Shown here one piece after another: positions 49,805-50,054 of a stretch of DNA of 64,000 nt (the first letter of the stretch is position 1; the number at the start of each line of letters is the position of its first letter). Both the position numbers and the translations under genes were made by a program. This stretch comes from a phage: assembly GCA_014435945.1 (NCBI GenBank), contig GCA_014435945.1_4088.1; one strand, 5' to 3'. The notes beneath the pieces are model-generated. The model did not search any database. It saw only the letters and a list, made by a program, of their open reading frames with translations, and was not told the origin of the DNA.

Positions 49805-49877
49805 GCCGACTTAGCTCAGTAGGTAGAGCAACTGACTTGTAATCAGTAGGTCACCAGTTCGATTCCGGTAGTCGGCA
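49805..49877 (+). tRNA. tRNA-Thr (anticodon UGU)
   Basis: Acceptor GCCGACT/AGTCGGC, D arm GCTC-AGTAGGTA-GAGC, anticodon loop CTTGTAA, T loop TTCGATT. Confidence 0.6.
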
Positions 49878-49884
49878 CAAATCA

Positions 49885-49957
49885 GCCGTTTTAGCTCAGT
49901 TGGTAGAGCAATCGCCTTGTAAGCGATAGGTCATCTGTTCGAGTCAGATAAACGGCA
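49885..49957 (+). tRNA. tRNA-Thr-like (anticodon UGU), copy 1 of tandem duplicate
   Basis: Acceptor GCCGTTT/AAACGGC, anticodon loop CTTGTAA, T arm ATCTG-TTCGAGT-CAGAT. Confidence 0.6.
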
Positions 49958-49964
49958 CAAATCA

Positions 49965-50037
49965 GCCGTTTTAGCTCAGTTGGTAGAGCAATCGCCTTGT
50001 AAGCGATAGGTCATCTGTTCGAGTCAGATAAACGGCA
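49965..50037 (+). tRNA. tRNA-Thr-like (anticodon UGU), copy 2 of tandem duplicate
   Basis: Identical sequence to 49885..49957. Confidence 0.6.
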
Positions 50038-50054
50038 CAAAATAAAGGTACACT

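Follow-up and report, generated by a model that had tools for sequence, protein, structure and literature searches.

Transfer RNA (tRNA)-Thr with the anticodon UGU is encoded in E. coli MG1655 by a single gene, thrU (PMC12445682), and its anticodon stem is cut by two Toprim-class E. coli defence nucleases, P2 OLD and PARIS AriB (PMC12445682; PMC12409363). The thrU product is the main target of P2 OLD (PMC12445682) and a prime target of AriB (PMC12409363). A phage tRNA-Thr(UGU) alone suppresses P2 OLD toxicity (Govande et al., NAR 2025, PMC12445682), as was confirmed independently for the tRNAs of T4, Bas32, Bas33 and HK446 (bioRxiv 2026 'OLD sentinel' preprint). Here we describe an array of three tRNA-Thr(UGU) genes in a 64,000-nucleotide (nt) stretch of phage DNA (GenBank assembly GCA_014435945.1, contig GCA_014435945.1_4088.1; hereafter the window), in which a host-identical gene, named A, is followed by two identical copies, B1 and B2, of a second, foreign-type gene, B. 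The window matches genomes of the genus Asteriusvirus, i.e., 121Q/PBECO4-like jumbo coliphages of 320-386 kb, with TH47 as the best match over 12 kb (97.6%), and seven tRNA genes were detected in it by ARAGORN. Clusters of this kind are typical for large lytic phages (T4, T5, jumbo phages), where they are ascribed to codon compensation or to replacement of degraded tRNAs. The window set resembles them in its clustering, in a presumably early region, among small open reading frames (ORFs) and homing endonuclease genes, and in serving over-used codons; it differs from them in its small size, in the restriction to codons starting with A and in the presence of three isoacceptor genes for one anticodon. 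We are highly confident that the three tRNA-Thr genes are real and that the duplication of B is recent and genuine.

The array and its repeats are composed of the following elements:

49805-49877, plus strand: tRNA-Thr(UGU) A, the same as E. coli thrU over 73 nt, with the anticodon stem ACUGA/UCAGU and CAA in place of CCA at the 3' side

49885-49957, plus strand: tRNA-Thr(UGU) B copy 1 (B1), with a Burkholderiales-type body, the anticodon stem AUCGC/GCGAU and no encoded CCA

49965-50037, plus strand: tRNA-Thr(UGU) B copy 2 (B2), of the same sequence as copy 1

49873-50041, plus strand: exact tandem repeat of period 80, as overlapping 89-nt copies at 49873-49961 and 49953-50041

49873-49881, 49953-49961 and 50033-50041, plus strand: 9-nt direct repeat CGGCACAAA, formed by the 3' end of A (or of B1 and B2) plus trailer

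The preliminary description of this DNA, made from its letters, had placed three UGU-anticodon tRNA genes here. Rfam (RF00005) returned the same positions (49805-49877, 49885-49957 and 49965-50037) with full-length cloverleaf alignments scoring 73.8-73.9 bits (gathering score 29), and ARAGORN also called all three as tRNA-Thr(tgt), at 49805-49878, 49885-49958 and 49965-50038. The covariance-model alignments show the UGU loop in each gene: the 7-nt anticodon loop CUUGUAA carries UGU at positions 34-36, together with U33 and A37. For B, the minimum-free-energy fold is the canonical cloverleaf. Whereas no position distinguishes B1 from B2, A and B differ at 16/73 positions, of which four fall in the acceptor stem, six in the anticodon stem, four in the T stem and one each in the T loop and D loop. 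The differing acceptor stem and T arm noted earlier are thus both present, but that account omitted the anticodon stem, whose six differences are the most informative ones.

We compared the site with 37 related loci from GenBank phages, bacterial assemblies and metagenomes, a few of which represent the same genome reached by two routes. In the region equivalent to 49729-50054 (loci L001-L016, L018 and L142-L161), at least five unrelated alleles are found between near-identical flanks: the host-identical A; P, which is thrU with a recoded stem; B; C, which is AT-rich and always has an HNH endonuclease gene on its 3' side; and D. Two-gene arrays occur in either order. The arrangements are distributed as follows:

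A+B+B: the window only, among the 37 related loci and the window

A+B: six related loci

A alone: one related locus

P alone: about 12 related loci

P+B': one related locus

B-like+P: one related locus

C plus HNH gene: nine related loci

D: six related loci

The tandem copy was detected by both Tandem Repeats Finder and a repeat finder, as an 80-nt period over 49800-50041. The exact 80-bp direct repeat reported earlier is indeed exact, and slightly longer than given there, with 89-nt copies spaced 80 nt apart; a perfect tandem copy of 80 nt cannot arise by chance. That the duplication is very recent, as had been proposed, agrees with the single B of six relatives, with the lack of the B-B junction in any other public sequence and with zero differences between the copies against about 4% in the flanks. 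The junction reads GATAAACGGCACAAATCAGCCGTTTTAGC; its 31-mer gave no match in the IMG/VR and JGI metagenomes, a B-specific 29-mer gave none in IMG/VR, and B itself is rare outside GenBank Asteriusviruses. To judge from the lack of differences between them, B1 and B2 are younger than the split from every sampled relative. No relative combining identical flanks with a single B was found, the nearest A+B genomes differing by ~4% in the flanks. In five A+B relatives, the 153-nt A-spacer-B segment nevertheless shows 0/153 differences from the window, where ~6 would be expected (P(0) ~0.002 per relative), which argues that A and B are both under constraint. In the ancestral A+B state (BF17 and others), two copies of CGGCACAAA lie 80 nt apart, i.e., in the geometry expected for slipped-strand or unequal exchange between these repeats; the 80-nt unit was probably doubled in this manner, through microhomology.

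The second B copy could instead be an assembly artefact, produced by spurious expansion or by polymorphism forced into the consensus, or the assembler could have collapsed more than two copies of B. Such an error would suit the perfect identity of the B copies and the occurrence of A+B+B in no other genome or metagenome examined. Yet, the longest exact word common to A and B does not exceed 10 nt, so that an assembler cannot create the B-B junction without reads that contain it. An independent assembly bears on the same point. The exact 141-amino-acid (aa) product of the ORF at 50055-50480 is found on one public contig only, Logan SRR1984092_282 (L021), which starts inside B2 and equals window positions 50012-51980 with 0 mismatches in 1969 nt; run SRR1984092 contains, by this match, the present phage or an identical strain. 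This k=31 contig starts at the first 31-mer after a 30-mer that is found twice in the window, the next letter being T at 49932 and A at 50012. A break at this point arises only if the reads continue this 30-mer in two ways, as a B-B junction would predict; an A+B genome would give no branch. The contig thus breaks exactly where the duplication predicts, which supports it indirectly, and we regard an artefact, including the assembly expansion considered in the preliminary description, as very unlikely.

The two bodies are of different ancestry. A is 73/73 identical to a chromosomal tRNA-Thr of ~5420 of 5426 complete E. coli genomes, namely thrU (tRNA-Thr4, UGU) in its thrU-tyrU-glyT-thrT-tuf context (the thrU-tyrU-glyT-thrT-tufB operon). 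It differs from the host gene in lacking the encoded CCA (GGCA-CAA in the phage copies vs. GGCA-CCA in thrU; none of A, B1 and B2 encodes CCA), in its AATTA-tRNA-CAAA frame and in being followed by another tRNA-Thr gene, not by tyrU. B, in turn, is identical to thrU at 57/73 positions and has no close counterpart on E. coli chromosomes; within E. coli, the closest matches (86%) are carried by P1-like plasmids. When one genome per species was scanned with the 28-nt anticodon arm of B, at least 120 stretches were returned, from which 118 tRNAs were recovered. Among the matches listed, all 118 are tRNA-Thr(tgt), and the best cellular tRNA-Thr(UGU) genes (L037, L089, L094) are identical to B at 71/73 positions, differing only at pair 5:68; these genes stand alone on large contigs, which come from Hydrogenophaga, Burkholderiales and Thiobacillaceae, and another match (L087) is situated on a 3.3-Mb Hydrogenophaga chromosome. 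B is 100% identical in the phages BF17, Ecwhy_1 and CMSTMSU. The cellular matches also account for the resemblance (90-92%) of B to tRNAs of Streptomyces phages. By these comparisons, B is a foreign, Burkholderiales-type tRNA-Thr(UGU) carried by a coliphage. A and B share the phage frame AATYA-tRNA-CAAA, and this common 80-nt frame suggests that replacement was limited to the tRNA body. An origin of B from the P allele of the relatives, by an older tandem duplication followed by divergence, was considered and is less likely, as B is identical to P at 60/73 positions vs. 71/73 to the Burkholderiales tRNA-Thr.

It had been proposed that two distinct bodies with one anticodon may differ in aminoacylation identity. 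In its strongest form, this would mean that A and B are charged with different amino acids and that ACA is read ambiguously or reassigned. The acceptor ends do differ (GCCGACU...AGUCGGC-A in A, GCCGUUU...AAACGGC-A in B), at the two pairs 5:68 and 6:67. Threonine identity, however, is located in acceptor-stem pairs and anticodon bases (PMC9976931), and both genes keep G1-C72, C2-G71, G35, U36 and A73, with G3:U70 in neither. The E. coli threonyl-tRNA synthetase identity set, which reportedly consists of G1-C72, C2-G71, G35 and U36 (Hasegawa et al. 1992), is complete in A and B. As A equals thrU and B belongs to an ordinary type of cellular tRNA-Thr, different identities find no support, and we consider different charging to be extremely improbable. 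The presence of two bodies is better explained by their different origins (host vs. foreign type) and by a different sensitivity to anticodon-stem nucleases.

With respect to these nucleases, P2 OLD cleaves thrU within paired CNG motifs, 3' of C28 and C40 (PMC12445682), while AriB cuts tRNA-Thr(UGU) between positions 40 and 41 at UAAUC↓A, where the T5 tRNA variants are changed (PMC12409363). A library of 245 tRNAs has been tested against OLD (PMC12445682). For tRNA-Thr6 to be resistant, the CNG motif had to be altered and the stem shortened as well (U43A); C28U/G42A by itself did not protect, and extra thrU had little or no effect (PMC12445682). The relevant positions of the phage genes are given below, the arrow marking the AriB cleavage point:

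A (and host thrU): stem ACUGA/UCAGU; 28-30/40-42 CUG/CAG; 36-41 UAAUC↓A; 27:43 paired

B: stem AUCGC/GCGAU; 28-30/40-42 UCG/CGA; 36-41 UAAGC↓G; 27:43 paired

P (commonest in relatives): stem AUCCC/GGGAA; 28-30/40-42 UCC/GGA; 36-41 UAAGG↓G; 27:43 mismatched, A27.A43 (U43A)

T5 tRNA-Thr: stem GUUGC/GCAUC; 28-30/40-42 UUG/CAU; 36-41 UAAGC↓A; 27:43 paired

tRNA-Asn(GUU) of the window (48632-48704, plus strand): differs from the host tRNA-Asn stem at exactly two CNG-forming pairs (host CGG/CCG, phage UUG/CAA)

The OLD CNG motifs and the AriB motif are both lost in B and both kept in A, which is the only one of ten phage tRNA-Thr compared that retains the host motifs; the paired CNG motif is also lost in the C and D alleles and in T4 tRNA-Thr. 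The described rescue tRNA-Thr(UGU) against P2 OLD (tRNA-Thr6, phage 21 tRNA-Thr21 and those of T4, Bas32, Bas33 and HK446) are, like B, coliphage UGU tRNAs that replace the sole host ACA reader, and B is likewise devoid of the paired CNG motifs (28-30, 40-42); P of the relatives has, in addition, the U43A change of tRNA-Thr6. In contrast to these rescue tRNAs, B has a fully paired 5-bp stem, is present in two identical copies, is accompanied by a host-identical and presumably sensitive partner, and is not a mutated thrU but a native tRNA of Burkholderiales type. As for the T5-type anti-PARIS tRNAs (PMC11464382, 2024; PMC12409363), B (UAAGC↓G) and T5 tRNA-Thr (UAAGC↓A) both depart from the host UAAUC↓A. 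They share U39G, T5 tRNA-Thr being a contributor to PARIS rescue, and B is changed on both sides of the AriB site (G39-C40↓G41, vs. G39-C40↓A41 in T5 tRNA-Thr). The dose of tRNA-Thr matters against PARIS, since genome-level expression of T5Mos tRNA-Thr was insufficient whereas plasmid overexpression rescued (Belukhina et al. 2025, PMC12409363). From its stem, B is a reasonable candidate for a nuclease-insensitive thrU substitute, which P2 OLD and AriB would fail to cut, and the extra copy would raise the dose of the insensitive form. The complete statement, which comprises the duplication, the supply of ACA-reading tRNA and the anti-nuclease role of B, is one towards which we lean slightly.

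Several observations weigh against such a role. The shortened stem associated with OLD resistance is absent from B, where A27-U43 is paired and 5/5 pairs are Watson-Crick; going by its sequence, B has one of the two reported resistance factors, and its membership in the class of anti-OLD rescue tRNAs is not established. The B stem is the native stem of a large bacterial group and need not reflect selection for escape. A cannot, on this analysis, be protective, because it is itself the substrate of the nucleases and additional thrU conferred little or no protection, so that one third of the array cannot be anti-defence. The primary target of AriB is tRNA-Lys, and the resistant T5 tRNA-Lys is mutated at positions 39 and 41 (PMC12409363); rescue from PARIS requires a resistant tRNA-Lys(UUU). 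No tRNA-Lys is present among the 7 tRNAs of the window, the rest of this phage genome lying outside it, or among the 6 of fEgEco12; hence, the array by itself cannot suffice to neutralise PARIS. At positions 36-41, the phage tRNA-Asn has the sequence that is optimal for AriB, UAAUC↓A, where the host tRNA-Asn has UAAUC↓C. Unlike in T5, a complete anti-PARIS set is therefore absent, and the escape pattern in the other phage tRNAs appears mixed, with tRNA-Asn lacking the CNG pair and having the AriB-optimal site. Finally, the duplication is known from a single genome and may be neutral and short-lived.

Indications of selection on the anticodon stem come from the alleles of the genus. Outside this stem, all 63 positions of P agree with thrU, whereas 9/10 stem positions differ (p ~1e-10), with U43A among the changes. 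The differences of B from thrU are also enriched in this stem (6/16, p = 0.006). As read from these sequences, the genus-wide pattern is consistent with selection acting on the anticodon stem, for which known biology provides a mechanism. We further propose, tentatively and as one joint scenario that we rate as doubtful, that the tRNA-Thr(UGU) site is an arms-race hot spot, at which at least five alleles, all but A devoid of the nuclease motifs, are exchanged. In this scenario, A would derive from host thrU by gene conversion during infection, via the 26 nt and 30 nt of identity beside the stem; the insensitive tRNAs would have been imported as native tRNAs of distant bacteria and not have arisen by mutation; and A+B+B would represent an adaptive amplification of the insensitive allele that offsets the reversion of the first copy to the sensitive host form.

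Alternatively, the conflict could take place at the level of DNA: HNH enzymes would cut the tRNA gene DNA of competitors, repair would swap or duplicate the alleles, and the differences in the RNA stem would be by-products. The tRNA gene cluster of T4 is acted on by a homing endonuclease, SegB, and several HNH genes are found in the T5 tRNA region as well. The HNH gene directly 3' of the C allele in nine relatives and the NUMOD4/HNH_3 endonuclease gene at 46170-46694, which adjoins tRNA-Arg, agree with this possibility. However, no HNH gene lies beside any of the A, B, P and D alleles, and the changes between P and thrU are compensatory base-pair changes confined to the RNA stem, as would be expected under selection on the RNA; we thus find a purely DNA-level origin unlikely.

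A simpler explanation is codon supply only, in which the phage would gain more ACA-reading tRNA in a host with a single scarce thrU, the difference between A and B would be accidental and the extra B neutral or a gain in dosage. ACA accounts for 21.9/1000 codons and 36% of Thr codons in 99 window ORFs, and for 4.9/1000 codons and 9% of Thr codons in 27 E. coli coding sequences; the codon, whose usage the preliminary description had suggested to check, is ~4.5-fold more frequent in phage ORFs than in the host sample. The window has a G+C content of 34.8%. All seven of its tRNAs (46065-50038, plus strand) serve codons with A in the first position (Arg UCU, Ser ACU, Met/Ile CAU, Asn GUU and three times Thr UGU). 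They form an A37 class, A37 being an invariant feature of P2 OLD substrates (PMC12445682), and the codons that they read are also enriched in this AT-rich phage. Codon supply is favoured, in addition, by the host-identical A, which cannot be an escape variant, and by the B stem being native to many bacteria. What it leaves unexplained is that P differs from thrU only in the anticodon stem (9/9 differences), that at least five unrelated alleles replace one another between near-identical flanks, and that both nuclease motifs are lost in every allele except A. As the sole explanation, codon supply is possible but not probable. Both this explanation and the DNA-level conflict are compatible with the combined reading of recent duplication, ACA supply and an anti-nuclease role of B. 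Extra ACA-reading capacity is plausible for all three genes, and the array would raise ACA decoding for an AT-rich phage. The most likely function, going by codon usage and stem sequence, is ACA-decoding supply, with B as a possible nuclease-insensitive substitute at doubled dose.

The array is surrounded by a block of small plus-strand ORFs interspersed with tRNA genes and a NUMOD4/HNH_3 homing endonuclease gene. Its genetic context includes:

49486-49513, plus strand: perfect sigma-70 consensus promoter (TTGACA-16-TATAAT), 292 nt upstream of tRNA A

6002, 24202, 38313, 40173, 45516, 45661, 49486 and 56584, plus strand: the eight perfect promoters, by consensus match

49615-49728, plus strand: conserved 37-aa ORF (phrog_38501), the upstream border of the variable tRNA-Thr locus

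50055-50480, plus strand: 141-aa ORF (phrog_17453, function unknown), the downstream border of the tRNA-Thr locus

46170-46694, plus strand: NUMOD4 + HNH_3 homing endonuclease gene, directly 3' of tRNA-Arg(UCU) at 46065-46138

In other Asteriusvirus contigs, an identical 37-aa protein is encoded upstream of the A, P, C and D alleles. No Pfam domain was detected in the small ORFs of the block, those directly flanking the array included, and PHROGs assigned them only to families of unknown function. Perfect TTGACA-N16-18-TATAAT promoters number eight in the window, all on the plus strand, against a chance expectation of 0.17; judging by these motifs, transcription of the region appears to rely on unmodified host RNA polymerase. 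The promoter at 49486-49513 is the likely start of a transcript carrying the 37-aa ORF and the tRNA array, and a terminator scan found no terminator-like site between this promoter and the array or near the array. The array probably belongs to an early polycistronic transcript, started at the host-type sigma-70 promoter, from which A, B1 and B2 would be cut out. By analogy with the CCA-less tRNAs of T4, which has tRNAs without encoded CCA, their maturation would depend on the host for 3' trimming and on the CCA-adding enzyme.

Tandem duplication is common in the array region. A paralogue of the 50055-50480 ORF is located at 50473-50832, both belonging to phrog_17453. Three tandem paralogous ORFs of 54 aa occupy 46733-47219 (plus strand), as a repeat of 161-nt period with 80% matches, and a perfect 27-nt tandem repeat of 2.3 copies, TAGATGGTAAAGTACTCAATATCGTTC, is present at 54607-54668.

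Two of the neighbouring tRNA genes are unusual. At 48538-48627 (plus strand), a 90-nt tRNA with the anticodon CAU and an encoded CCA scores 50.3 bits with Rfam. Its T loop, UUAGAAU, is unusual, and an additional stretch of ~17 nt, CACAGUUAAUGACACAC, is drawn by ARAGORN as unpaired and not as a variable stem. This tRNA is 100% identical in the Asteriusvirus contigs L152, L153, L156 and L159, while other relatives possess a 75-nt or 79-nt tRNA(CAU) at this place. Its candidate identities are Met or Ile2 (lysidine); ATA is used at 12.3/1000 codons in the phage vs. 2.4 in the host sample. The second, at 48439-48530 (plus strand), is a 92-nt tRNA-Ser with the anticodon ACU (A34), which is unusual for bacteria; relatives have ACU or GCU there.

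Earlier publications cover phage tRNA-Thr(UGU) genes, the way they cluster and what they do against OLD and PARIS, and accounts of the present phages only list tRNAs, the fEgEco12 paper giving 'two tRNA-Thr' with no comment. What is new is modest and consists of the unique and very recent tandem duplication of one tRNA-Thr allele, the pairing of a host-identical with a foreign-type copy, and the Asteriusvirus Thr site with at least five exchangeable alleles. Taken alone, the triple array amounts to a small and recent change in the copy number of an element of known type and would not surprise a specialist. Phage tRNAs have long been explained by codon usage and, since 2023-2025, also as replacements for host tRNAs destroyed by defence nucleases. 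One phage genus here offers a natural series, composed of the sensitive host form, a version with a recoded stem, one of foreign type and a recent duplicate of the latter, which could be used to learn which features of the anticodon stem confer resistance and whether tRNA gene dose limits escape.

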